The notes: generated by a model from the sequence alone, not told the origin. A stretch of 64,000 bases of DNA from an uncultured Bacteroidales bacterium (GCA_902776985.1 CACYSD010000001.1:106758-170757); one strand, 5' to 3'; shown: positions 3,887 through 48,636, counted from the stretch's first letter. Program-made: numbers and translations.

Positions 3887-5481
3887 GAAACTATTATCTG
3901 CTCCAGTAAAAGAGCTGTAAGAGAGAGCATTGACAATCGCAAGGAACGGGAAGTGCGATGTACGAAGAAGTTCCATACTGAAATAATAAAGACATATAGC
4001 AGCACTACGGCAACGGTGGATGGTCTATAGTCCACCGTTGCTATTTTTATTGAGGCAACTGCATCTACGATTGTGTTGTTCCATGAAACTATTGCAATGA
4101 TAGCAGATGTAAGCAATGTGGTAGTCAATCCACACAATGTAAACATCCACCAGAGCAACAGCATAATCAGCAATATAGATACTAAGGTCGAAATCACAAC
4201 GCTGCTTAACAGCCCTAACAGAGGAATGTAGCCAAAATAGTATGCTACTAGAGGAAATGTAGCAAGAGTACAGACGAGCGACATCCTTAATGGTGGCCAC
4301 AGGTATTCTTGGATTATCCTTGTAAGTATATTTCTGCGTCTTCCGGTTGAATCAATATGCAGCGTGTCCACATGAGTCAATGCTATAGCAACAATACTCG
4401 CAAACGACAGCTGGAAACCGATATTCATCAGCAGCAGCGGATTGAAGAATAGCATCAGCACTGCAGCGATGGCACAGGAATTGAGAAGACTTTGCTCTGC
4501 ATCTATTACTAAGGCCAGTTGCACTAAGGAAAGCATTATTGTTGCCCGAAGCAGTGACGGAGGCATACCTGCTATCATACAGAAGAGCCATGCAACGGGA
4601 ATTAAGGTAAAGGCAACAACTCGTCTCCATCTGCGCGTCATGAAGTTGTTCACAAGATAATTGAACATCACAAACAACATGGCGAGATGCATTCCCGACA
4701 AAGCCAGCACATGAGCCACTCCTGCATGTGCATAGGCTTGACGCAGTTTCTGATTAAGATTGGCTCTTTGTCCCGTAGTCATCGCCTCTACCACACTGCC
4801 AACGTCGTCTGTAATACCTGCATCGGCATACTTCAAATGTATCTGACTGCGTATATCGGCAAATTGCTTCGTCCAGTCACTTTTCCCATGATTTTCCCCT
4901 CTGCTATCCCAACTGCCAGGAAGCACATAGCAGGTGGCGCAAAATCCTTCGCAAAAAAGATAATTGCGATAATCATCAAGAATATGGTTATCGGTAGAGT
5001 ATGCGTCATTACGGATAAAAGTCGGATTAACCTTATATGCTTGAAGGGAAATGCTGTCACCACTATGCAATGTCTCTGGCGAATGACTTTCGTCCAAGGC
5101 AATATAAGCTAAAACACGGCTGTCATTTGTCCTGACCTCAACTGCATAGGTACGTGCCTTTTTCTTTGGTTCGGATTCCACAACCCCACATATCCACGCC
5201 CCTTTATCCGGAACGCTTTCAGTAATTGACAGACATCTCTGCAACATAAGTAGTGCTCCGAAGAGAGCGATACTGACATTACTCAGGACACCAAACAGAT
5301 GTATATATCTGAACTTCGGGCATAACGTATTGACATATAGTGCAGCACATGAGCATAAAATAAATGGTATAGCAAGCCACAACAGGTTTACTATACCATA
5401 ATCTATGCTTATATATCCCATAGCCATTCCCACTATCAGAGGAATGGCGAAGCGAACTACAGGATAATTCTGCCAGGACAT
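3883..5481 (-). CDS. comEC: ComEC/Rec2 family competence membrane protein
   Basis: Polytopic membrane protein. The LALSGMHLAMLF motif matches the ComEC competence domain (HLLAISGLHL-like). 532 aa. Confidence 0.75.
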   Translation of the reverse strand: MSWQNYPVVRFAIPLIVGMAMGYISIDYGIVNLLWLAIPFILCSCAALYVNTLCPKFRYIHLFGVLSNVSIALFGALLMLQRCLSITESVPDKGAWICGVVESEPKKKARTYAVEVRTNDSRVLAYIALDESHSPETLHSGDSISLQAYKVNPTFIRNDAYSTDNHILDDYRNYLFCEGFCATCYVLPGSWDSRGENHGKSDWTKQFADIRSQIHLKYADAGITDDVGSVVEAMTTGQRANLNQKLRQAYAHAGVAHVLALSGMHLAMLFVMFNYLVNNFMTRRWRRVVAFTLIPVAWLFCMIAGMPPSLLRATIMLSLVQLALVIDAEQSLLNSCAIAAVLMLFFNPLLLMNIGFQLSFASIVAIALTHVDTLHIDSTGRRRNILTRIIQEYLWPPLRMSLVCTLATFPLVAYYFGYIPLLGLLSSVVISTLVSILLIMLLLWWMFTLCGLTTTLLTSAIIAIVSWNNTIVDAVASIKIATVDYRPSTVAVVLLYVFIISVWNFFVHRTSRSLRLSMLSLTALLLEQIIVS

Positions 5482-11849: not shown

Positions 11850-11950
11850 TTGTGGGAAAAAAGTTTCAGCGAAGTGAAACAAAAGTTTCACCGCAGTGAA
11901 AATAAAGTTTCAGCGAAGAGAAAAAAAAGTTTCACTTCGCTGAAACTTTT
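11850..11950. repeat. Array A: four 22-bp-spaced hairpin units GTTTCA-N6-TGAAAC (iteron-like), flanked by an A/T run
   Basis: Units start at 11863, 11885, 11907 and 11929 (exact 22-bp period). Units 1 and 4 are reverse complements of each other. The conserved 5' flank ttgtgggaaaaaagtttca is shared with the second copy at 38913. Confidence 0.6.
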
Positions 11951-38221: not shown

Positions 38222-38780
38222 TGTAATTTGAAGTTTATTTAATTAGTTAATAAATAATTGAATACAAACGAGAAAAGGGTTTTGATGGCAGATGCCAACA
38301 AAACCCTTAAACGGTATTATATAAAAAAAACTTAAAACTTGCTGAAACGCAGGAATTATACAACTCGTTGAAACACAGAGAATTACCCCCCCTATTAGGT
38401 TACAGGGAATCTTGCTGAAAAGTGGGAAAGTATTCATCTGTACGGTCTTGATTAATAAAGTTGGTAAAAACTATGATATAATTTTGTTTCGGATGCAAAT
38501 ATATGGAGATTATCGTAGCTAAAATTATAGTATTTAACCAATCACTATCAAATTTGATAACGACAAAAATTTCTTTTTCTCGCCAATCATGTTTCAATTT
38601 TAAAACTTTTTCACATTTTTATGTTGTACAGCATAAAAATCAGTGTAAAATACTGTCTAAATGCCCTAAAATGCTTTTAAAAATATAACATACACCACAA
38701 ATCAATGATTTTAAAAGAATTATCGAAAAAACATGTAATTGCCATTTATGACCCATTAAGAATTAGACGAAGAACCACTT

Positions 38781-38898
38781 ATATCATAAATAAGCAACAA
38801 TAGTTGACAACCTATATTAAAAATAAGTATAAAACAAAGTCAACCCATATTACAAATAAGGCTGAAAGTAGTCAACCAAAATCGTTAAACTACAATTA
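38781..38898. repeat. 118-bp repeat segment X, copy B (inverted relative to copy A)
   Basis: Its reverse complement aligns with 11978-12095 at about 90% identity. Confidence 0.6.
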
Positions 38899-38912
38899 AA
38901 AAGTCCCAAAGC

Positions 38913-39035
38913 GTTGTGGGAAAAAAGTTTCACTGTGCTGAAACTTTATTTTCACTGTGCTGAAACAAAAGTTTCTCTGCGGTGAAACTTTTGTTTCACT
39001 CCCACTGAAACTTTTGTTCCAGTGCGAAGAAACCA
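38913..39035. repeat. Array B: five 22-bp-spaced hairpin units GTTTCA-N6-TGAAAC (iteron-like)
   Basis: Units start at about 38927, 38949, 38971, 38994 and 39016. Same 5' flank ttgtgggaaaaaagtttca as array A. Lies ~160 bp upstream of rhaB. Confidence 0.6.
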
Positions 39036-39191
39036 AAAAACGTCTGTTGTATAACGATTAACAAGGAAATAATTGAAGATTATCCAAGATAATTATTCAG
39101 CTTTGAGCACAAAAAAAACGGGAATAGCATAGCTATTGTTAAAAAATAATGTAAATTTGCAGGATACAAACAATAGAAATCAAACTAACTA

Positions 39192-40616
39192 ATGACATCC
39201 AAGTATTTTTTCTGTGTTGACCTCGGTGCTACAAGCGGACGAACGATTCTCGGCAGCATCGTGAACGACAAGTTACAACAACGCGAACTGACTCGTTTCC
39301 CAAATAATATCATACAGACCGGAGGACATTTCTTCTGGGATATCTATGCTCTCTATAACGAGATTATAAAGGGACTGAAGTTGGTTGCCAGCGAAGGCAT
39401 CGAGATTACCTCAATCGGTATCGATACCTGGGGCTGCGACTTTGTGATGATTGGTAAGGACGGCGGCATCCTCCGCAATCCCTACTGCTACCGCGATCCT
39501 CACACCGACGGTGCAATGGAGGAATACTTCAAACTGATTCCAAAGGAGAAAGTGTATGAGAAGACCGGCATTCAGTTCATGCAGTTCAACTCGCTTTTCC
39601 AACTCGCCACGCTGCGCCGTAACCACGACTCGGCTCTGGAGGCAGCAGAGAAGATTCTCTTTATTCCCGATGCTCTGACATACATGCTTACTGGCGAGGC
39701 TGTTTGCGAATACACCGTGCTCAGCACCAGTCAGATGCTGGATCCCCGCACCAAGAGGATTGACAAGGAACTTATCAATGCCATAGGTCTGAAGGAAGAG
39801 CAGTTTGGCAGATATGTGCAACCAGGCGAGGTGGTAGGTGTACTTAGCGAAGAGGTGCAGAAACAGACAGGTCTCGGTGCGGTGCCCGTAGTGGCTGTTG
39901 CCGGACACGACACAGGTAGTGCTGTGGCTGCTGTTCCTGCAGAGGACGAGAGATTTGCCTACCTCAGTTGCGGCACTTGGTCGCTGTTGGGAATCGAAAG
40001 CAAGGATGCTATCATCAACAAGAAGAGTTTTGAGTATAACTTCACTAACGAAGGTGGAATAGAGGGAACAACCCGTTTCCTGAAGAATATCTGCGGAATG
40101 TGGCTGTTGGAAAGGGCAAGGAAGGAGACCCTCCTCCAAGCTTGGCCATCGGACATTAATCAGATTAATCAAGATGCGATGGAGGCGAAACCGTTCCAGT
40201 CGATTATCAATCCAGATGACCCGCGGTTTGCTAATCCACCGTCAATGATTGAGGCTATCCAGAGTTATTGCCGCGAGACAGGTCAGCATGTGCCGGAGAA
40301 CTACAAGGAGATTGCACGCTGTATCTTCGAGAGTCTCGCACAGAGATACAAGGAAGTGCTGGACTACCTGAAAGAACTGGCACCCTTCCCCATCGAGAAA
40401 CTGCATGTCATCGGTGGAGGTACCTACAACCAGTATCTGATGCAGATGACTGCGAACAGCATCGGGCTGCCAGTAGTTACTGGTCCTGTAGAAGGCACCG
40501 CCATCGGTAATATGATGATTCAGGCAAAAGCCGCCGGTCTTGTCAGCGACATCTTCGCCATGCGCCACATCATCGCCAACAGCATCGAACTGAAGACTTA
40601 CCTGCCGGAAAGCTGA
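39192..40616 (+). CDS. rhaB: Rhamnulokinase (FGGY carbohydrate kinase family)
   Basis: N-terminal CVDLGATSGRTILG; FGGY N- and C-domains; 474 aa. Context with rhamnulose-1-P aldolase and a sugar isomerase. Confidence 0.8.
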   Translation: MTSKYFFCVDLGATSGRTILGSIVNDKLQQRELTRFPNNIIQTGGHFFWDIYALYNEIIKGLKLVASEGIEITSIGIDTWGCDFVMIGKDGGILRNPYCYRDPHTDGAMEEYFKLIPKEKVYEKTGIQFMQFNSLFQLATLRRNHDSALEAAEKILFIPDALTYMLTGEAVCEYTVLSTSQMLDPRTKRIDKELINAIGLKEEQFGRYVQPGEVVGVLSEEVQKQTGLGAVPVVAVAGHDTGSAVAAVPAEDERFAYLSCGTWSLLGIESKDAIINKKSFEYNFTNEGGIEGTTRFLKNICGMWLLERARKETLLQAWPSDINQINQDAMEAKPFQSIINPDDPRFANPPSMIEAIQSYCRETGQHVPENYKEIARCIFESLAQRYKEVLDYLKELAPFPIEKLHVIGGGTYNQYLMQMTANSIGLPVVTGPVEGTAIGNMMIQAKAAGLVSDIFAMRHIIANSIELKTYLPES

Positions 40617-40819
40617 GAAGGACTAAGAAATCCTAGGAAATCCTAAGAAATCCTAAGAAATCCTAGGAAATCCTAGGCGGTTCTAGGCTATACTAGGCAA
40701 TCCTAGGAAAGCCTAGGAAAGCCTAGGAAAGCCTAGGAGAACCTAGGAGAACCTAGGAGAACCTAGGCACTTCTAGGCAGACCTAGGCACTCCTATAAGA
40801 GCCTAGAAAAACCTAAAAC
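40617..40819 (+). repeat. Phased 10-bp tandem repeat array 1 (NNCCTAGGNN, about 20 units) immediately after the rhaB stop codon
   Basis: tcctaggaaa tcctaagaaa ... acctaggaga ... all in register with a 10-nt period. The CCTAGG core is palindromic; A/purine tracts are phased at 10 bp. Confidence 0.7.
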
Positions 40820-40866
40820 AATAATAATAATCAACTCATTATTAACTAATAAAAAAAACCAATAAT

Positions 40867-41532
40867 ATGGAATACGAAACCAAAGGGAAAGTCTTGAAAA
40901 AGGCTGTAGTTTGGAAGGATCTCTATATTTATAAAAAGAGCGATACCATCTATCAGCTGACGGTAGAATTCTGTCATCGATATCTCCCTCAATATGGCGA
41001 TCGTACAGTTGATCAGATGGTGCAGGCTGCCCGCAGCTGCAAACAAAACATCGTTGAAGGCAGCGAGGACGGTCAGACAAGCTCTGAAATGGAGATAAAG
41101 CTACTTAACGTAGCACGAGGAAGTTTGCAGGAATTGTGCTCAGACTATAATGACTACATTAACACTCGCCACATATCCCTTTGGTCTCGTGACAACGAGC
41201 GACAGATACAACTTAGGAATTATTGCAAAGCACACAATGACTATAGCGATTACGCTCCGTTGGTTGAGAAAATGAATGACGAAGAATATGCGAATTTGTT
41301 AATCACTCTCTGTCACCAAACTGACAAGATGATGTGCACTTATATTGAGCAATTAGAAAAGAAATTTGTAACTGAGGGAGGCATTAAAGAGCGTATGCGC
41401 GCTGCTCGAACAGGATACCGGAAAGCTCAAGACTCCCACATGGCAGATTTAGAAACAGAAAACAGACAACTCAAAGCCGAAATTCAAGCTTTAAGAGAGA
41501 GAATAAAAGAAATAGAGGCTAAGCTGCCCTAA
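40867..41532 (+). CDS. Four-helix-bundle protein (23S rRNA intervening-sequence protein / Avd-like family) with C-terminal coiled-coil extension
   Basis: VWKDLYIYKKSDTIYQLTVEFCHRY...QMVQAARSCKQNIVEGSED...LNVARGSLQELCSDY matches the four-helix-bundle (TIGR02436-like) pattern. The C-terminus QLKAEIQALRERIKEIEAKL is a coiled coil. Flanked on both sides by CCTAGG arrays. Confidence 0.6.
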   Translation: MEYETKGKVLKKAVVWKDLYIYKKSDTIYQLTVEFCHRYLPQYGDRTVDQMVQAARSCKQNIVEGSEDGQTSSEMEIKLLNVARGSLQELCSDYNDYINTRHISLWSRDNERQIQLRNYCKAHNDYSDYAPLVEKMNDEEYANLLITLCHQTDKMMCTYIEQLEKKFVTEGGIKERMRAARTGYRKAQDSHMADLETENRQLKAEIQALRERIKEIEAKLP

Positions 41533-41540
41533 GGAGAAAT

Positions 41541-41752
41541 AGGAAAAGCTAGGAAATCCTAGGCTATCCTAGGCAGGCCTAGGCAGACCTAGGCAGACCT
41601 AGGAAATCCTAGGCGGTCCTAGGCAATCCTAGAAAAGCCTAGGAAAGCCTAGGAAAGCCTAGGAGAACCTAGAAGAACCTAGAAAAACCTAAGAAAAGCC
41701 TAGAAAAGCCTAGAAAAGCCTAGAAAAATCCAGAAAACCCCAAGAACTAAAA
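41541..41752 (+). repeat. Phased 10-bp tandem repeat array 2 (NNCCTAGGNN, about 20 units; one 11-bp unit, with decay to CCTAGA/CCAGA at the 3' end)
   Basis: ggaaatccta ggctatccta ggcaggccta ggcagaccta ... aaaagcctag aaaagcctag. Ends 12 bp before the isomerase start. Confidence 0.7.
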
Positions 41753-41764
41753 AAAAATACAACA

Positions 41765-43195
41765 ATGAGTAAACCATTAGTAGAAACCAAAGCGAGAGTG
41801 GGTGTGTTCAGCATTGCTTTGCAAGCTTACCTACCACAGTTTCCTCAACTCGTTCCCGAGTTCGAGGCTCAGTATGCGACATTTAAGAAGACGCTGCCAG
41901 AAACAATAGAAATAATTGACGGAGGAATGGTCACGACCAAGGAACAGTCTATGGCTGCCGGCGATAAGTTCCGCTCAGCCGACGTAGACCTTGTTATCCT
42001 TCAGATGCTGACTTACTGCACATCATATAATATGTTGCCAGCAGTTCGCGACTTGGATGTACCTGTAGTCATCGTGAACGTTCAGAAGAAACTGGCTCCA
42101 GAATACGACAAGACAGATATCCCTACCTGGCTCGGTGAACTCTATGCCTGCGGAGCTATAGGTGAGATGGTTGCCGACCTGAACCGTGCAGGCAAACGTT
42201 CAGCAGTAATTACAGGCGTAGTTGAAGGTGGTGATCCTGAAGTTCAAGCAGAAATTGAGGATTGGTGCCGTGCTGCACAGGTTCGCCGCCGTTTCCGCGA
42301 CACCAACATAGCTCAGATTGGACGTCCTTACCCAGGCATGATGGACCTCTATATCGATGAGACAAACCTCTATCACCGTATGTTTGTATATACCAAGCAA
42401 TTTGACTGGGAACAGATGTGGGCTATCGCAGATAATATCACCGATGAAGCTGCTATCAAGGCTAAGGCAGAAGATATCCTCGCCACATTTGACATTGAAG
42501 GCGGAGGAACCATTGAGAAAGTTTGGGATATGGCAAAGTACGTTGTAGCTTTCGAGCAATGGGTAAAGGATGAGAAGTTGGGAATGATTGCCTCACACTA
42601 TGCAGGTTTTGCCCAAGGCGTTGCCGGCAAGCTCGATTCAATGCTTATTCCCGCGTTCTCCATGCTGATCAAGCAACACACCGCTTGCGCAGTGGAAGGC
42701 GACATGAAGGTAGCTATGGCAATGTCGATTCTGAAAACCATTTCCGGCACAGGCACATTGGCTGAGATGTACAGCATAGACTTTCCGAAGGATATCTGCA
42801 TCATCGGTCATAGCGGTTCTGGCGACTTCGACATCTCTCAGGCAAAGAAACCAACGATGAAGATTGTGCCTGTATTCCACGGAAAGACCGGTGGTGGTTA
42901 CCTAACCCAGTTCTATCCTCCAACAGGTCCTGTGACTTATCTCGCTATCACTCAGGACAAGAACGGAGTGTTCAAGTTTGTTGCAGCAGAGGGAGTCAAC
43001 GAAGAAGGCCCTATCTTCACCTTCGGTGATACCAACATGCGCACCAAGTTCTCGCTTCCTTGTCGCGAATTTGTGAACAAATGGAGCGAAGCCGGTCCTA
43101 CACACCACATGGCTGCTGCCGTAGGTCACCACATCGACACCATACTGAAAGTAGCAAAGATCCTGAATATTGAGTGTGACGTCGTTTGTAGATAA
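41765..43195 (+). CDS. L-arabinose isomerase / L-fucose isomerase-family sugar isomerase (probable L-rhamnose-type isomerase of this operon)
   Basis: 476 aa. VDLVILQMLTYCTSYNMLPAVRDLDVPVVIVNVQ...ACGAIGEM resembles the AraA/FucI N-terminal and central domains. Operon context with rhaB and rhaD. Confidence 0.6.
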   Translation: MSKPLVETKARVGVFSIALQAYLPQFPQLVPEFEAQYATFKKTLPETIEIIDGGMVTTKEQSMAAGDKFRSADVDLVILQMLTYCTSYNMLPAVRDLDVPVVIVNVQKKLAPEYDKTDIPTWLGELYACGAIGEMVADLNRAGKRSAVITGVVEGGDPEVQAEIEDWCRAAQVRRRFRDTNIAQIGRPYPGMMDLYIDETNLYHRMFVYTKQFDWEQMWAIADNITDEAAIKAKAEDILATFDIEGGGTIEKVWDMAKYVVAFEQWVKDEKLGMIASHYAGFAQGVAGKLDSMLIPAFSMLIKQHTACAVEGDMKVAMAMSILKTISGTGTLAEMYSIDFPKDICIIGHSGSGDFDISQAKKPTMKIVPVFHGKTGGGYLTQFYPPTGPVTYLAITQDKNGVFKFVAAEGVNEEGPIFTFGDTNMRTKFSLPCREFVNKWSEAGPTHHMAAAVGHHIDTILKVAKILNIECDVVCR

Positions 43196-43275
43196 AAGAC
43201 CCACCTGAAGACCCACCCCGACCCTCAAAGGGAAGACCCACCCCCTTACCCCTCCCTTGTAAGGAGGGGAGTAGT
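43196..43275 (-). repeat. GC-rich G4-motif hairpin element, copy 4 (extended, with three gaagaccca sub-repeats; G-rich on minus strand)
   Basis: Reverse complement contains CTACTCCCCTCCTTACAAGGGAGGGGTAAGGGGGTGGGTCTTC. Confidence 0.55.
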
Positions 43276-43301
43276 TACCTTTTCAAAACAAAAAGAAAAC
43301 A

Positions 43302-43688
43302 TTGCTAATGAACAGAGTTGCTACATATAAAACTGCATCACCCGACAGGTATGACATTCTGCGTGCCTATGCTCGTAAAAACAGAAAAAATGCAACATTA
43401 GCTGAACAGGTTTTGTGGAAACATCTTAGGGGTGGAGAACTAGGCGTAGAATTCCTACGTCAACACATCGTCGGCGATTACATTGTGGATTTTGCATCAC
43501 GGCATGACGGTCTTATTATCGAGATCGATGGTGGCTACCATGCGGAACGCCAACAAGAAGAAGATGATGCTATTCGACAAAAAAATTTGGAACAAATGGG
43601 TTTTCACTTTCTTCGTTTTTCAAATGAAGAAGTTATGTATAATACCGAAGAGGTTTTAAAACAAATAGAAGATTATTTATATGAATAA
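43302..43688 (+). CDS. DUF559 endonuclease-domain protein (Vsr/restriction-endonuclease-like fold)
   Basis: ATLAEQVLWKHLRG...VEFLRQHIVGDYIVDFASRHDGLIIEIDGGYHAERQQEEDDAIRQKNLEQMGFHFLRF matches the DUF559 pattern (D..E.DG..H motif). 128 aa. Inserted between operon genes. Confidence 0.7.
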   Translation: MLMNRVATYKTASPDRYDILRAYARKNRKNATLAEQVLWKHLRGGELGVEFLRQHIVGDYIVDFASRHDGLIIEIDGGYHAERQQEEDDAIRQKNLEQMGFHFLRFSNEEVMYNTEEVLKQIEDYLYE

Positions 43689-45063
43689 GCAAACAAATTC
43701 TAATAATCAATCTACTCCCCGCCCTCACAGGGAGGGGCAAGGGGGAGGGTCTTCTTCTTTGAAGAGTACCCTTGCGGTCTCTCTGAATAATTACCTTGAT
43801 GCGGGAGCAATCGTAGCAGGTTCAAGCGGAATTACCTTGTGGCAGAATTATCTGGGGCTGTCGGAGATGCATCTGGGTTGGCTCAATGCACTAAGTGCTA
43901 ATGCGCTGGGTGCAGCTATCGGAGCAATCATCGGTGGCTTCCTCGCAGATAAGTTCGGACGTAAGTTCATCTTCACATACAATCTGTTGGTGTATATGCT
44001 TGGTGTGCTCATCATCATGCTGTCCATTAGCTATCCCATGCTCCTTTGCGGATTCCTCGTCACAGGTATTTCAGTAGGAGTGGGAGTTCCTGCATCGTGG
44101 ACATATATCTCTGAAAGCAGTGAGGTTCACAACCGCGGCCGCAACATCTGCATCTCACAGATGTCGTGGGGCATCGGACCTATGCTCATCCTCTTCTTCG
44201 GTATGCTCTTTGCACCAGGCGGCTACTGCTACGGTCCTGTAGAATCGCTGGCTCATGCCATCATCGGTGCCGATGCTTCCCAGGCTGCGGTTGAGGTATT
44301 CTCATCGAGAGTAGTGTTCTTCACCCTCTTCGTTGTTGCCTTCATTGCCTGGAACCTCCAACGTCAGTTGCAGGAAAGCGCTGAGTTCGAAGCCAACAAA
44401 CAGAAAGGCAATAGCGGTATGGTTGAAAACATCAAGATGCTGTTCACCAACCGCATTGCAGTCAAGGCTGTGGTATTCCTTGCAACAATCTATTTGACTT
44501 GGAACCTCGTTGCCTCAGTTATGGGATTCTTCATGCCTCATGTATATGAGACTGCAGGCGGGCTCAGCAACGAAACCGCAAATATGCTTAGTTGCATAAG
44601 CTGGGTATTCGTTGTAGTTACCACCCTCATCATCTCGTTCTTAGTTGACAAGGTTGCACACCGTGTGTTCTACGTCTTCGGTCTGGCAGCTGCACTGACA
44701 GCATGGATTCTCGTCATTGGCGGAAGTATTACCAGCATTGCCGGCATTTGGGTGTTCACCATCCTGTGGGGTATCAACAACGGCAGCAGCGTACAGATAT
44801 TCTATGCACTTTGGGGCAGTGAGCTTTTCCCTGCGAAATTCCGTGCCGGTGCACAGGGACTGATGTTTTTCATCGTCCGTGGTCTCTCAGCGCTGTGGGG
44901 ACTGATCTTCACGCTTATCTACGGAGAGAACGGCGAAGGCTTCACCATCGCAGCCTACTGCATGATTGGTCTCCTCGTTATCTCTCTCGTCGTCGGTTTC
45001 ATCGGTGCCCCCAACACCCGCGGCAAATCGCTGGAACAGATTACAAAGGAAAGATATGGGTAG
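43681..45063 (+). CDS. MFS-family sugar transporter (probable rhamnose/deoxy-sugar permease)
   Basis: 12 predicted transmembrane helices and the MFS motif GGFLADKFGRK. The annotated first ~25 codons (..STPRPHREGQGGGSSS) are the translation of the hairpin repeat; the true start may be downstream. Confidence 0.7.
   Translation: MNKQTNSNNQSTPRPHREGQGGGSSSLKSTLAVSLNNYLDAGAIVAGSSGITLWQNYLGLSEMHLGWLNALSANALGAAIGAIIGGFLADKFGRKFIFTYNLLVYMLGVLIIMLSISYPMLLCGFLVTGISVGVGVPASWTYISESSEVHNRGRNICISQMSWGIGPMLILFFGMLFAPGGYCYGPVESLAHAIIGADASQAAVEVFSSRVVFFTLFVVAFIAWNLQRQLQESAEFEANKQKGNSGMVENIKMLFTNRIAVKAVVFLATIYLTWNLVASVMGFFMPHVYETAGGLSNETANMLSCISWVFVVVTTLIISFLVDKVAHRVFYVFGLAAALTAWILVIGGSITSIAGIWVFTILWGINNGSSVQIFYALWGSELFPAKFRAGAQGLMFFIVRGLSALWGLIFTLIYGENGEGFTIAAYCMIGLLVISLVVGFIGAPNTRGKSLEQITKERYG
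43712..43754 (+). repeat. GC-rich G4-motif hairpin element, copy 5
   Basis: CTACTCCCCGCCCTCACAGGGAGGGGCAAGGGGGAGGGTCTTC. Confidence 0.55.
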
Positions 45064-45091
45064 AAGACCCTCCCGTCAGGGAGGGAGTAAG
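45063..45091. repeat. GC-rich hairpin element, truncated copy 6
   Basis: gaagaccctcccgtcagggagggagtaag has the same ends (GAAGACCC...GGGAGTAG) but lacks the central G-tracts. Confidence 0.45.
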
Positions 45092-45094
45092 TGA

Positions 45095-45232
45095 AGTGAT
45101 AGGAAAACCTAGAAAAGCCTAGGAGAGCCTAGGAAAGCCTAGAAAAGCCTAGGAAAACCTAGGAGAACCTAGGAGAGCCTAGGAAAACCTAGGAGAACCT
45201 AGGCAGACCTAGGCACTCCTAGAAGAACTTAA
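45095..45232 (+). repeat. Phased 10-bp tandem repeat array 3 (NNCCTAGGNN, about 13 units), upstream of rhaD
   Basis: aaaacctaga aaagcctagg agagcctagg aaagcctaga ... agacctaggc actcctagaa. Confidence 0.7.
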
Positions 45233-45260
45233 AAACTCAAAAACTAAAAAACTAAATAAA

Positions 45261-46082
45261 ATGAAAAGTATTCTTGAAAACAGACCTGGATTGCAGGCAG
45301 AAATTGATAAAGTGGCGGAAGTAGCCGGTTATCTCTGGCAGAAGGGATGGGCTGAGCGCAACGGTGGTAATATCACCGTGAATATCACTGAGTATGCGGA
45401 CGACGAAATCCGCAATATGCCTGCTATTAGTGAAGTCTTCCAGATTGGCACAACACTGCCCTATCTCAAAGGCTGTTATTTCTACTGCAAAGGCACAGGC
45501 AAACGTATGCGCGACCTCGCACGCTGGCCTATGCAGAACGGTAGTATCATCCGCATTCTCGACGACTGCAAAAGCTACGTCATCATTGCAGATGAGCCTG
45601 TGATGCCAACATCGGAACTGCCTTCACACCTGTCCATGCATGACTACCTCATAGGTTCGGGAAGCTGCTATAAGGCTTCGCTCCACACCCACCCTATCGA
45701 ACTGATTGCAATGAGCCATAACAGAGGAATGTTGAGAAAGGATGTTATGACTCATCTTCTCTGGTCTATGATTCCAGAAACTTTGGCGTTTGCACCATTA
45801 GGATTGGGAATCGTGCAGTACGAACTGCCAGGCAGCGTGAAATTGGCAAAAGCTACACTGGAAAAAATCAAGGACTACGATGTAGTGCTATGGGAGAAGC
45901 ACGGAGTATGTGCTGTAGGAACAGACATCATGGATGCCTTCGACCAGGTTGATGTGCTCAACAAGTCTGCTAATATCTATATGTGTGCAAAGAACATGGG
46001 CTTCACTCCTGACGGCATGACCGACGAAGCTATGCGCGAAGTACAGCAAGTCTTCAAACTTCCGAAGAAGAGACCATGCTAA
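45261..46082 (+). CDS. rhaD: Rhamnulose-1-phosphate aldolase (class II aldolase/adducin family)
   Basis: WAERNGGNITVNI and HTHP metal-binding motif region. 273 aa. Confidence 0.8.
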   Translation: MKSILENRPGLQAEIDKVAEVAGYLWQKGWAERNGGNITVNITEYADDEIRNMPAISEVFQIGTTLPYLKGCYFYCKGTGKRMRDLARWPMQNGSIIRILDDCKSYVIIADEPVMPTSELPSHLSMHDYLIGSGSCYKASLHTHPIELIAMSHNRGMLRKDVMTHLLWSMIPETLAFAPLGLGIVQYELPGSVKLAKATLEKIKDYDVVLWEKHGVCAVGTDIMDAFDQVDVLNKSANIYMCAKNMGFTPDGMTDEAMREVQQVFKLPKKRPC

Positions 46083-48547
46083 AGTGAAATTTCCTGACCC
46101 TGAAGAAGTGGTGAGGAGAAATAGATTCGAATAGTTCCCGTGCGGACATCAGTGTCCCAAGCGGGAACTGTTCCGTTATTACGGGCATTACGCATCATAG
46201 CGCCTTTAGCTATGTAGGCTACAAGACGACCGTTCTTCACACGGCAGCGAGGCTGGTTCTTGTCACGAGTATCACGGATATCGCCGTTCTCCATGCCAAG
46301 CAGACGGGCATTGCCCTGTACACGGCAGGAAATCTCGTTGTCGGCAAGAGTCACGACTTTACCATCTTCATCAACAACCTCGACAAGAATCTGCACCACA
46401 TCACCATTGCCAGCAAGCTGTTTCTTGTCGGCAGTGACACGAAGTGCGTAAGGGCGTCCGGTTGTGGCTATCTCTGCCGAAGCACCGTCAACCTCGCAAC
46501 GAAGTGTTCCCGGAGCGTATTCCACATCCCAATAAAGTATGTTGGTAGCCTCATCACGCTGTGGGTCCCCTCCGATTGGAGAACCGTTAAGAAGTAGGTG
46601 TGCCGACTGTGCATTGGTGTAGCACACCACACGTACACGCTGACCTATCTCGTAGTTCCAAACCGCAGGAGCATACTGACTCACGTAGCCGCCAGCGTTA
46701 TTGCGACGTCCGCGCTGCTGCATCTGTGGATAGGTTCCGATATAGCACATCGGAGTCTCACTCCAGAGCGACGCACGGTAATAACCGTTCGGTTTAATCT
46801 GACCGGCGAGGTCAAGCAGACCGGCTTCACTACCTCGTGCCGGCCACGGTCCGCTTTCTCCAAGATAGTCAATACCTGTCCACAGGAACTGACCGAAGAT
46901 ATGTTCATTGTCAGTTACGGCACGCCATGCAGCCAAATCGTGACGGTTCTCGCTTCCGTAAATCACACGTTTGGGATATTTAGCATGGTCTTCTCCGTAA
47001 CGGCTTTCGGTGTAGTTATATCCAACCACATCGACTGCTTCAGGATAAGCGGTCTCGTTCGACATCACCACACCAGCCAAGGCTCCGGTAACAGCACGGG
47101 AGGAGTCGATGCCACGTACGATTTTGGACAAACGCTTGGCAATCTCTCCGATTCGTTCTGCACGAGGAGCATCTGACTTGAATCCGCCATAGATGGGCTG
47201 CGTCATACTCTTGTCGCCATTGAGCACAGGATGGCTGTATGGGTCGTTTGGATAATCCACCTCATTGCCTATGCTCCACATGAAGATTGAAGGATGGCAG
47301 CGATCACGACGAACCATATCAGCTACGTCACGGTCAATCCATTCCTCGAAATAGTCGAACGTTCCTTCAAAACCAGGCGTTCCCTGATTCCATCCCTTCA
47401 ACCACTTGCGTTTGGGAAATTCCCATTCGTCGCTGGCCTCATCCATAACAAGGAGTCCGAGAGAGTCACACAACTCATAAACCATAGGTGCATGTGGATT
47501 ATGACTCATGCGAATGGCATTTACGCCTAAAGATTTCAGGGTCTGCAGACGGGTACGCCACACAGCAGCAGGAACAGCTGTACCCAGCACGCCTGCATCA
47601 TCGTGCAAGCAAACACCCTTAACCTTCATCCATTTGCCGTTGAGCGCAAAACCACGGTCGGGTGAGAAGGTCAGAGTACGGATGCCAAGAGAAACAACCG
47701 AACGGTCGATGTCGTTACCGTCTTTCTGCAAACGGGTAACAATTTTATAAAGGTAGGGATTGGCGAGTGTCCACAACTGTGTATTCTTAATCTGTACAGT
47801 TGCAGTCTGTCGCTGCTCAGAAGGAATCTTCACCTTAGCCGTTCCGACAACTTTTCCTGACGCATCGTAAATCTCAACGATTGCTGCATAGTCAGCACCT
47901 CCAGCTGTGGCCTGCACATCCACCTCAACAGTGGCATTGCTGCCAGAAAGTTTCTTGACTCTCCATGCACTACCCCACTGAGCCAGATGGACTTCGGGTG
48001 CACTGATAATCCACACATTGCGATTGATGCCGCTGCCTGTGTACCATCGGGAATCGTTCTGACGAGAGTGATCCACACGGACTGCCAGCACATTGTCGCC
48101 TGAGCGGTTGAGATGAGGAGTCAGTTCATAGAGGAACGAGGCAAATCCGCTGGGACGATAACCCAGCTTCACTCCGTTCAGATAAACTGTAGAACGGTTA
48201 TAGACACCTTCAAAATAGATATAGATTCTTTTTCCTGTTGCCAAAGCAAGACTGTCGGGAGAGAAATGGCAACGATACAACCCTATTCCACCAGGAAGAT
48301 AACCCTGACACGAACCGCGGTCAGGCGACATAGGTAGCGAAACACTCCAGTCATGAGGAATGTGAACACGTTGCCAGCGGCTGTCGTTGTAATCGGTATT
48401 CACTGCGGCAGAGTCATCTGCAAGTTGGAACAGCCAACCTTCATTAAGCCGACTACTTTCGCCAAAAGAAACAGGACTCTGCTGAGCCAACATAGTAAAA
48501 GAAGGCATCACGAATGCCATCAACAGGGAAAGGAAAAGCTTTTTCAT
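46079..48547 (-). CDS. Glycoside hydrolase family 2 (beta-galactosidase/beta-glucuronidase-like)
   Basis: Signal peptide; N-terminal sugar-binding domain (RWQRVHIPHDWSV), Ig-like domain and TIM-barrel with WSIGNE catalytic region. 822 aa. Confidence 0.8.
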   Translation of the reverse strand: MKKLFLSLLMAFVMPSFTMLAQQSPVSFGESSRLNEGWLFQLADDSAAVNTDYNDSRWQRVHIPHDWSVSLPMSPDRGSCQGYLPGGIGLYRCHFSPDSLALATGKRIYIYFEGVYNRSTVYLNGVKLGYRPSGFASFLYELTPHLNRSGDNVLAVRVDHSRQNDSRWYTGSGINRNVWIISAPEVHLAQWGSAWRVKKLSGSNATVEVDVQATAGGADYAAIVEIYDASGKVVGTAKVKIPSEQRQTATVQIKNTQLWTLANPYLYKIVTRLQKDGNDIDRSVVSLGIRTLTFSPDRGFALNGKWMKVKGVCLHDDAGVLGTAVPAAVWRTRLQTLKSLGVNAIRMSHNPHAPMVYELCDSLGLLVMDEASDEWEFPKRKWLKGWNQGTPGFEGTFDYFEEWIDRDVADMVRRDRCHPSIFMWSIGNEVDYPNDPYSHPVLNGDKSMTQPIYGGFKSDAPRAERIGEIAKRLSKIVRGIDSSRAVTGALAGVVMSNETAYPEAVDVVGYNYTESRYGEDHAKYPKRVIYGSENRHDLAAWRAVTDNEHIFGQFLWTGIDYLGESGPWPARGSEAGLLDLAGQIKPNGYYRASLWSETPMCYIGTYPQMQQRGRRNNAGGYVSQYAPAVWNYEIGQRVRVVCYTNAQSAHLLLNGSPIGGDPQRDEATNILYWDVEYAPGTLRCEVDGASAEIATTGRPYALRVTADKKQLAGNGDVVQILVEVVDEDGKVVTLADNEISCRVQGNARLLGMENGDIRDTRDKNQPRCRVKNGRLVAYIAKGAMMRNARNNGTVPAWDTDVRTGTIRIYFSSPLLQGQEISL

Positions 48548-48565: not shown

Positions 48566-48622
48566 TGTCGTTATGACGATATGACGTAATAACTATATAA
48601 CGTTATATCGATATGACGCTAA
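48566..48622. promoter_or_regulatory. Conserved ~50-bp intergenic module with palindrome TATAACGTTATA, copy 2 (upstream of the GH2 gene)
   Basis: cgttatgacgatatgacgtaataactatataacgttatatcgatatgacgct. Confidence 0.35.
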
Positions 48623-48636
48623 AACGTCCTTAAGGT

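Follow-up and report, generated by a model that had tools for sequence, protein, structure and literature searches.

A dispersed CCTAGG minisatellite family flanks a four-helix-bundle gene inserted in a rhamnose operon of rumen Prevotella

Organization of the rhamnose operon

The window analyzed here, a stretch of 64,000 nucleotides from an uncultured Bacteroidales bacterium (GCA_902776985.1, CACYSD010000001.1:106758-170757), carries a rhamnose operon of rumen Prevotella. The operon reads, in order, rhamnulokinase (rhaB), array 1, a four-helix-bundle gene (hereafter the cargo gene), array 2, a sugar isomerase, a DUF559 gene, an MFS transporter, array 3 and rhamnulose-1-phosphate aldolase (Table 1). 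The sequence from the end of array 1 to position 40866 forms an A-rich leader before the cargo gene. Array 3, which does not adjoin the four-helix-bundle gene, is missing from the initial annotation of this DNA, which had been made from the sequence alone and had described array 2 as the downstream member of a pair.

Table 1. Features of the rhamnose operon around array 2 (positions counted from the first nucleotide of the window)
Feature	Coordinates	Strand	Evidence or remark
-7 promoter motif TAnnTTTG, Bacteroidetes-type	39152..39159	+	33 nt before the rhaB ATG
Rhamnulokinase rhaB, native upstream gene	39192..40616	+	TIGR02627, 529.8 bits; FGGY_N/C domains
Array 1, ~20 units of CCTAGG + 4 nt	40622..40817	+	begins 6 nt past the rhaB stop
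Cargo gene (four-helix bundle + suffix domain + coiled coil), 221 aa	40867..41532	+	profile matches
Array 2, ~21 units, one of 11 bp	41528..41739	+	tandem repeat search and motif positions
A-rich isomerase leader, predicted unpaired	41740..41764	+	minimum-energy fold; kept among strains
Sugar isomerase (fucose/arabinose-isomerase-like), native downstream gene	41765..43195	+	profile match; 88-100% identical in 80 operons
DUF559 gene (Vsr-like endonuclease fold)	43302..43688	+	PF04480, 1.5e-32
Array 3, solo, between the MFS transporter and rhamnulose-1-phosphate aldolase	45099..45233	+	same repeat family

The search for the TAnnTTTG motif over positions 38500-46300 returned the site ahead of rhaB as its sole match, with none in the array spacers. 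A sigma-70 scan for internal promoters gave nothing above shuffled sequences, and the sense strand of the arrays showed no terminator-like site. Given that the spacers lack a promoter and the sense strand lacks a terminator, we infer that the operon mRNA, started at the promoter ahead of rhaB, includes the arrays. On the antisense strand, each array has several weak terminator-like sites consisting of a hairpin and a T-run (e.g., 45173-45158, 41653-41638, and 40677-40662).

The operon and its surroundings contain further repeats and variable genes. The DUF559 gene, the second small gene lodged in this operon, is found only in some orthologous operons, and sister strains carry instead a gene for a predicted lipoprotein of 213-216 aa, for which no significant Pfam match was obtained (the best, DUF6175, was below the cut-off). 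Between the isomerase stop and the DUF559 start (43196-43301), tandem GACCCACC(TGAA) units are followed by a hairpin, CCCCTCCC-TTGTAA-GGAGGGG. The same units occur in four other contigs (L218, L221, L222, and L223), where their number varies despite an identical isomerase, and the gene that comes after them varies as well (DUF559 in some strains, the predicted lipoprotein in others). Array 3 is directly preceded by a similar hairpin, CCCTCCC-GTCA-GGGAGGG (45071-45088). Upstream of the rhaB promoter, a 22-bp tandem repeat, AGTTTCACTGTGCTGAAACTTT, is present in 3.4 copies (38926-39000), and a related 22-bp tandem repeat is located at 11857-11934; the region around these repeats in contig L138 matches window positions 12097-11855 at 83%, on the opposite strand. 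These 22-bp repeats may be binding repeats for a regulator. Two intergenic 8-bp tandem repeats, ACGTTATA in five copies and TATAACGA in seven (27023-27063 and 48572-48626, respectively), have units related by reverse complementation. Upstream of the operon, at 35230-35854, adjacent nucleotidyltransferase (MNT) and HepT-like genes form a probable toxin-antitoxin pair.

Sequence and turnover of array 2

The unit of array 2 is CCTAGG plus 4 nt, repeated in tandem every 10 bp. Unbroken 10-base blocks of the form taggNNNNcc span 41541-41689, and a single 11-bp unit, CCTAAGAAAAG (41688-41698), shifts the register. Tandem Repeats Finder delimited the array to 41540-41727, with a period of 10, 18.7 copies and 84% matches. 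The first unit, a degenerate CCTAAG (41528-41533), includes the TAA at which the four-helix-bundle gene stops, and this places the true start of the array at ~41528. On the isomerase side, the final cores are CCTAGA, CCTAGA, CCTAGA, and CCAGAA (G-to-A degenerate), and the A-rich tail reaches position 41764, with the isomerase ATG at 41765.

Direct reading of the sequence thus bears out what had been described initially, namely a 10-bp period with one register-shifting 11-bp unit and a degenerate 3' end of the CCTAGA/CCAGA type. The accompanying proposal that this end results from slippage erosion found no support. The degenerate end is identical in strains that differ in unit number elsewhere in the array and, over 73 co-directional arrays of the family, core decay toward the downstream start codon had no significant polarity (p=0.17; thirds test, p ~0.1). 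The claim that array 2 is of the same family and orientation as array 1 was confirmed, since ~140 nt of the two can be aligned and the last ~80 nt are nearly identical.

Even near-identical strains differ through the gain or loss of whole array units. Among six strains with an identical isomerase protein, array 2 exists in 4-5 alleles, which vary in their number of whole units and show G/A substitutions in the cores, with the degenerate 3' end constant. Array 1 is shorter by 3+1 units in a strain that is 96% identical. For array 3, the strains differ by an 8-bp CTTAAAAA unit in the 3' tail, a 10-nt upstream insertion and substitutions in the cores.

CCTAGG sites are confined to the arrays

All 30 CCTAGG sites of the window fall within the three arrays (40632-40787, 41558-41663, and 45118-45213). 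In 100 dinucleotide shuffles the number of sites averaged 8.6 with a maximum of 17, and none reached 30; the arrays are real and non-random. The same arrays recur in independent ENA, JGI, and Logan assemblies, and an assembly artefact was thereby rejected. Their unit order is also informative: the order common to arrays 1 and 2 exceeds that of 200/200 unit-order shuffles, and arrays 1 and 3 share a block of 99 nt whose score was reached by none of 200 shuffles. Since array 1 has its unit order in common with each of the other two, all three are mutual copies.

No 4-bp palindrome of the window is more depleted outside the arrays than CTAG, with 11 sites observed versus 99 expected under a Markov model (9-fold), and the arrays hold 80% of the window's CTAG. 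GATC (72 observed versus 224 expected) and GGCC (56 versus 163) are likewise depleted, and together these three depletions suggest restriction avoidance or a repair bias in the genome. An avoidance specific to CCTAGG, as expected from restriction avoidance, does not need to be invoked, because the general depletion of CTAG already predicts only 0.2 CCTAGG sites. With a CTAG core at every 10 bp, a TAG occurs in all frames of both strands within 30 nt. The arrays do not correspond to CRISPR arrays, which have 23-50 bp repeats with unique spacers of similar length, given their 10-bp period and 4-nt spacers, nor do they have the characters of integron attC sites.

The array-gene-array block is an insertion

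To compare orthologous junctions, the isomerase was scanned against metagenome contigs, which yielded 80 rhamnose operons with 88-100% identical isomerases. Among these, the array-gene-array block is present only in the window's own lineage (L138, 96% nucleotide identity), where all contigs encoding the identical isomerase have it. The other 79 of the 80 operons contain no CCTAGG array at any junction, that of array 3 included; the native spacers are mostly ~70-100 nt between rhaB and the isomerase, and 45-60 nt between the transporter and the aldolase. Since 79/80 orthologous operons lack both the arrays and the gene, the block formed by array 1, the gene and array 2 is an insertion and not native operon sequence. 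A native regulatory site of the rhamnose operon was rejected for the same absence.

The initial annotation had viewed the two arrays as bracketing an inserted cassette, whose presence or absence as a unit could be read from the orthologous rhaB-isomerase spacers. That comparison agrees with the insertion of the entire block, present in the window lineage and absent elsewhere. The arrays are not specific to the gene: of the two patterns named in advance as speaking against a cassette (the gene without the arrays, or the arrays without the gene, in no consistent association), the second was found, array 3 and most arrays in other genomes standing alone. Target-site duplications, suggested as a further check, were not seen: no short duplication was found at the outer array ends. 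The arrays themselves are the direct repeats, and their palindromic cores make them direct and inverted repeats at once.

The cargo protein and its homologues

The cargo protein is a member of the PF05635/TIGR02436/TIGR04258 four-helix-bundle (23S IVS protein) family, scoring 34.2 bits for PF05635 (cut-off 33.8), 34.7 for TIGR02436 (cut-off 24), and 76.6 for TIGR04258 (cut-off 40). Its AlphaFold2 model (pLDDT 81.3) has a long C-terminal coiled coil after the bundle. The best Foldseek matches were the PF05635 pentamer structures 2GSC and 2RLD, with target TM-scores of 0.73-0.81 and a probability of 1.0, at E-values of only 0.01-0.03. No match was obtained for the cargo protein among defence-system models, and no homologue in phage records; plasmid records gave a single homologue, on a 568-kb replicon of P. 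nigrescens. In the literature, PF05635 proteins have no characterised function and are noted at dispersed rRNA insertion sites and among the genes of cas operons.

Thousands of homologues at ~75% identity are encoded in Prevotella and Bacteroidaceae MAGs. Those examined here were sampled by protein, independently of any repeat, and are located in type I restriction operons (in the hsdS-hsdR gap), beside McrBC (McrBC-topoisomerase), and elsewhere. Homologues embedded in operons and devoid of a promoter of their own have CCTAGG/CCTAAG/CTTAGG 10-bp arrays on both sides, as seen in the window, P0110, P0058, and P0055 lineages as well as in L023, L028, L089, L100, and L116. In the cassettes of L023, L100, and L028 the upstream and downstream arrays share unit order, which was not significant in 7/12 cassettes, mostly with short arrays. 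By contrast with the embedded copies, the homologues of L232, Prevotella sp. ne3005, and P. nigrescens have their own TAnnTTTG promoter and a 3' array only; in P. nigrescens (55% protein identity) this 3' structure is only a short CTAGG hairpin. The L006 lineage has a cargo homologue without an array.

As the free-standing, promoter-bearing copies have a 3' array only or none, the downstream array is the constant partner of the gene. A 3' structure of the CCTAGG type accompanies it in 8/9 sampled lineages, including P. nigrescens, and this distribution suggests that the association is old and specific to the 3' end of the gene. One cargo protein recurs unchanged in three contexts (P0110), which was considered as a sign of recent mobility and discarded: homology between the contexts continues for ~230-380 nt ahead of the upstream array and for ~70-110 nt beyond the downstream one, and the case reflects a rearranged restriction locus and not array-bounded transposition.

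The CCTAGG family in other genomes

A scan of species-representative genomes for four phased CCTAGG cores retrieved at least 119 loci, with 114 from Bacteroidales among the matches listed; as arrays were retrieved by CCTAGG, the conservation of the core partly reflects the retrieval. The Bacteroidales arrays are almost all from ruminant-gut MAGs, some of which have 6-8 loci among the matches listed. The CCTAGG arrays are a dispersed 10-bp minisatellite family, with a palindromic core and a variable, usually A-rich 4-nt spacer. Literature searches returned no description of CCTAGG arrays or of the cassette, and the repeat family is apparently undescribed.

Most arrays are solo. The cargo gene is found at ~13/119 loci among the matches listed, and the neighbours of solo arrays are housekeeping genes, e.g., those for urocanase, nitroreductase, and Sua5. 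The placement figures that follow also hold among the matches listed. Every array falls between genes (co-directional in 87 cases, convergent in 24, and divergent in 4), and none of 91 lies in a close divergent spacer, with both genes no more than 150 nt away (binomial p=9e-7). The median distance is 5 nt from the stop codon to the array and 35 nt from the array to the start codon; in 33 of 113 cases the upstream gene terminates within the array, and the upstream gene stops with TAG in 57% of cases, versus 24% in the background. The A-rich spacer can face either way with respect to transcription (45 sense, 28 antisense), and a dependence of spacing on orientation, looked for as a test of the terminator idea, was not found (p=0.31). 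Arrays of the same MAG resemble each other more than those of other MAGs (p=2e-11), which points to copying or homogenisation within the genome.

Short GC-rich (CCTAGGNNNN)4-12 arrays are present in unrelated phyla (L052, L060, L101 from Actinobacteria, L108, and L120) and on the viral contigs L004 and L005. The actinobacterial CCTAGGNNNN arrays start exactly at the TAG stop codon of a gene, and two Mycobacteriaceae share a CCTAGGNNNN array at an orthologous convergent spacer.

Other cargo at the same junctions

Further small genes with repeat flanks were observed at the junctions of orthologous rhamnose operons. A 120-aa PF05635-like gene occurs at the rhaB-isomerase junction (L177, L186, and L205) and at the transporter-aldolase junction (L179 and L198), flanked by (GAGGTGA/GAGGTAA)n upstream and by the reverse complement downstream, (TCACCTC)n, i.e., TCTCACC/TCTTACC. 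These flanks form a perfect RNA stem of ~32 bp around the ORF (z=-6.4). The GAGGTGA unit upstream is Shine-Dalgarno-like, and its downstream counterpart is similar to the 3' tail of the 16S rRNA. A version of GAGGTGA/TCACCTC without an ORF is located at the rhaB-isomerase junction in L179.

At this same rhaB-isomerase junction, L161, L172, L176, L143, and L159 have GxxExxY-type proteins of ~145 aa, some of them degraded, whose genes lie between short units of the ACAAAAATCT / AGATTTTTGT type in inverted arrangement. Solo arrays with a TCTAG core and a 9-10 bp period, a related but distinct CTAG-core family, are found in the rhaB-isomerase spacers of L142 (~5290-5360) and L202 (~1490-1530), which are the lineages with the closest rhaB (78-80% identity).

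A tentative generalization, which we consider possible and less than probable, is that rumen Bacteroidales harbour undescribed mobile "operon hitchhiker" cassettes. Their cargo would come from rRNA-IVS gene families (PF05635, GxxExxY, and DUF559) and their termini would be family-specific tandem arrays (CCTAGG 10-mers, inverted GAGGTGA/TCACCTC 7-mers, and those of the ACAAAAATCT type). Such cassettes might repeatedly invade the same stop-codon-proximal junctions, move by array-array recombination or by excision at the RNA level, and leave solo arrays behind as a genome-wide family.

Predicted RNA structure

The RNA of array 2 has a predicted fold of -94.7 kcal/mol (z=-10.7) with stacked CCUAGG helices; rounded values for arrays 1, 2, and 3 are -90, -95, and -77 kcal/mol. 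In the minimum-energy fold of array 2, the last ~40 nt before the start codon are unpaired, and their sequence is kept among strains. When arrays 1 and 2 are cofolded, -195.8 kcal/mol is obtained versus -185.2 kcal/mol for the two folded separately, with 56 pairs between the arrays, and a fold of 1161 nt also pairs part of array 1 with array 2. From these cofold energies, an RNA bracket around the cargo ORF is possible and not clearly favoured. At gathering thresholds, Rfam gave no match in the whole window, the only sub-threshold matches being spurious miRNA hairpins.

Interpretation of array 2

In our assessment, array 2 is probably, though far from certainly, the repeat that terminates a promoterless hitchhiker cassette on its 3' side, as well as a member of a dispersed, hypervariable minisatellite family. 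The cassette, which sits between rhaB and the isomerase, would consist of array 1, the A-rich leader, the PF05635 four-helix-bundle-plus-suffix gene, and array 2. As far as function can be read from sequence, the element is most likely a selfish or neutral hitchhiker, flanked by repeats and transcribed together with the operon. Its arrays would grow and shrink via slipped-strand mispairing or unequal recombination, a turnover that pairing of palindromic cores between units would favour. A gene could enter an array by homologous recombination between arrays, which would leave duplicated arrays on both sides, and could exit by array-array recombination, leaving a solo array such as array 3; solo arrays may in this way be scars or landing pads. 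A polymorphism between occupied and solo states was not seen at any one site, neither an excision circle nor an empty-array allele was found, and no transposase or recombinase was linked to the arrays.

Several properties of the element may make it tolerable to the operon: it has no promoter or sense-strand terminator of its own, it places a TAG stop in all three frames of both strands within 30 nt, and its start-proximal end is A-rich and unstructured, as translation initiation in Bacteroidetes requires. The array mRNA would fold as stacked CCUAGG helices, and an effect on mRNA stability or processing would be a by-product or a secondary use.

If that effect were instead the reason for the arrays, they would be host-beneficial RNA: REP-like intercistronic modules that shield the upstream mRNA from 3' exonucleases or tune the operon genes' expression relative to one another, and that block antisense transcription. 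The very stable folds predicted for arrays 1-3, a location almost exclusively downstream of genes, and terminator-like sites several per array on the antisense strand and none on the sense strand are all consistent with such a role. We nevertheless hold it to be unlikely, since 79 orthologous operons work without arrays, the unit number is unstable from strain to strain, the orientation is mixed among the matches listed with spacing unaffected, and many arrays have decayed to CCTAAG runs incapable of mutual pairing. Less probable again is an IVS-like excision, in which a CCUAGG duplex between arrays 1 and 2 brackets the cargo ORF and RNase III frees the cargo mRNA, separating the rhaB and isomerase messages. 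The family of the cargo points in this direction, as 23S rRNA intervening sequences carry genes of the same family, and so do the perfect stem of the sister 120-aa PF05635 elements, the existence of an ORF-less version of these, and the inter-array pairing predicted in the 1161-nt fold and the cofold. However, the CCTAGG flanks are direct repeats and only their 6-bp cores are complementary; the helices would thus be broken by 4x4 loops and stay below the ~20 bp of continuous duplex that RNase III prefers. The gain of -10.6 kcal/mol moreover ignores the cost of closing a loop of 660 nt, and free-standing copies and solo arrays, with a single array, have no bracket at all.

Two further accounts give the arrays an existence apart from the cassette. 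An autonomous minisatellite or REP-like family could nucleate at TAG stop codons, with the gene landing or being retained there, so that the arrays would come first and be independent of the gene. Solo arrays do outnumber gene-linked ones ~8 to 1 among the matches listed, upstream genes are enriched in TAG stops and many end inside the array, and (CCTAGGNNNN)4 arrays run from a TAG stop in Actinobacteria, which lack the gene. Against this stands the 3' CCTAGG-type structure that goes with the gene across 8/9 sampled lineages, as far as P. nigrescens at 55% identity, and we find this order of events improbable. At the DNA level, the exact 6-bp palindrome at a 10-bp period could offer one site per helical turn, on a single face of the DNA, to a dimeric CCTAGG-recognising protein (from a methyltransferase or restriction system, a regulator, a nucleoid protein, conceivably the cargo), the arrays serving as sinks or nucleation sites. 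The 9-fold depletion of CTAG elsewhere in the window, with 80% of it held by the arrays, would suit such a binding array, as would the phased A-tracts of the 3' part, which would curve the DNA. Yet the general depletion of CTAG accounts for that of CCTAGG, the related solo array of L142 repeats every 9 bp, which speaks against helical phasing as the constraint, and no CCTAGG-binding protein was identified, the cargo having no defence-system match and its fold relatives no known function; this is the account to which we give the least credence.

A hitchhiker cassette of this kind would bear on how the "23S rRNA IVS proteins" of PF05635, which are abundant and have solved structures, enter rRNA genes, cas operons and restriction operons. 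Here, one operon junction is empty in most lineages and in others holds at least three different families of IVS-type genes, with tandem-repeat flanks characteristic of each; repeat remnants without a gene are present as well. Both the mobility of IVS genes and their behaviour at the RNA level are thereby open to direct testing. The gene family is available in culture, with a 3' array or a short hairpin related to it, in Prevotella sp. ne3005 and P. nigrescens. The CCTAGG arrays also mark strains by their hypervariability and are a probable cause of breaks in metagenome assemblies: array 3 terminates the L138 contig, and contigs of ~1 kb carry many of the cargo homologues.

Comparison with known systems

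The locus combines known kinds of elements, REP/MIRU-like intergenic repeats and IVS-type hitchhiker genes. The resemblance to 23S rRNA intervening sequences lies in the PF05635/TIGR02436 membership of the cargo and its fold matches to 2GSC and 2RLD, in a small gene placed inside a host transcription unit between flanking repeats able to pair in RNA, and in sister elements at the same operon junctions with perfectly complementary flanking arrays. The host differs, being a sugar-catabolic operon (rhamnulokinase-isomerase) in a window without rRNA or an Rfam match; the flanks are head-to-tail 10-bp arrays, self-complementary in a 6-bp core only; and the cargo carries TIGR04258, an additional suffix domain, together with a coiled coil. 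The duplex typical of an IVS is clear in the sister 120-aa elements; the inter-array pairing predicted for the window takes the form of 6-bp helices broken by 4x4 loops.

With REP/BIME sequences, the arrays have in common palindromic units, stable RNA stem-loops (z=-10.7 for array 2), many dispersed copies per genome, and a location in transcribed extragenic space that avoids promoter regions. The REP/BIME of Enterobacteria and Pseudomonas are imperfect palindromes of 20-40 nt, often in alternating orientation and mobilised by RAYT transposases, whereas the CCTAGG unit is 10 bp long with a perfect 6-bp palindrome, is strictly head-to-tail, and is associated with a specific cargo gene. MIRUs likewise are tandem repeats in intercistronic spacers that abut stop and start codons, with strain-variable copy number (VNTR); their units are reportedly 46-101 bp long with small ORFs that couple translation, in contrast to the CCTAGG units of 10 bp with stop codons in all six frames. 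Finally, promoterless genes in the same orientation inside a host transcription unit, gene-less derivatives that outnumber the full elements, and a single junction with different cargo by lineage (4HB, GxxExxY, DUF559, or lipoprotein) recall integron cassettes and MITEs. The element differs from integron cassettes by having no attC-type site and no integrase, and from MITEs in that its ends are tandem arrays, at which no short target-site duplication was seen.
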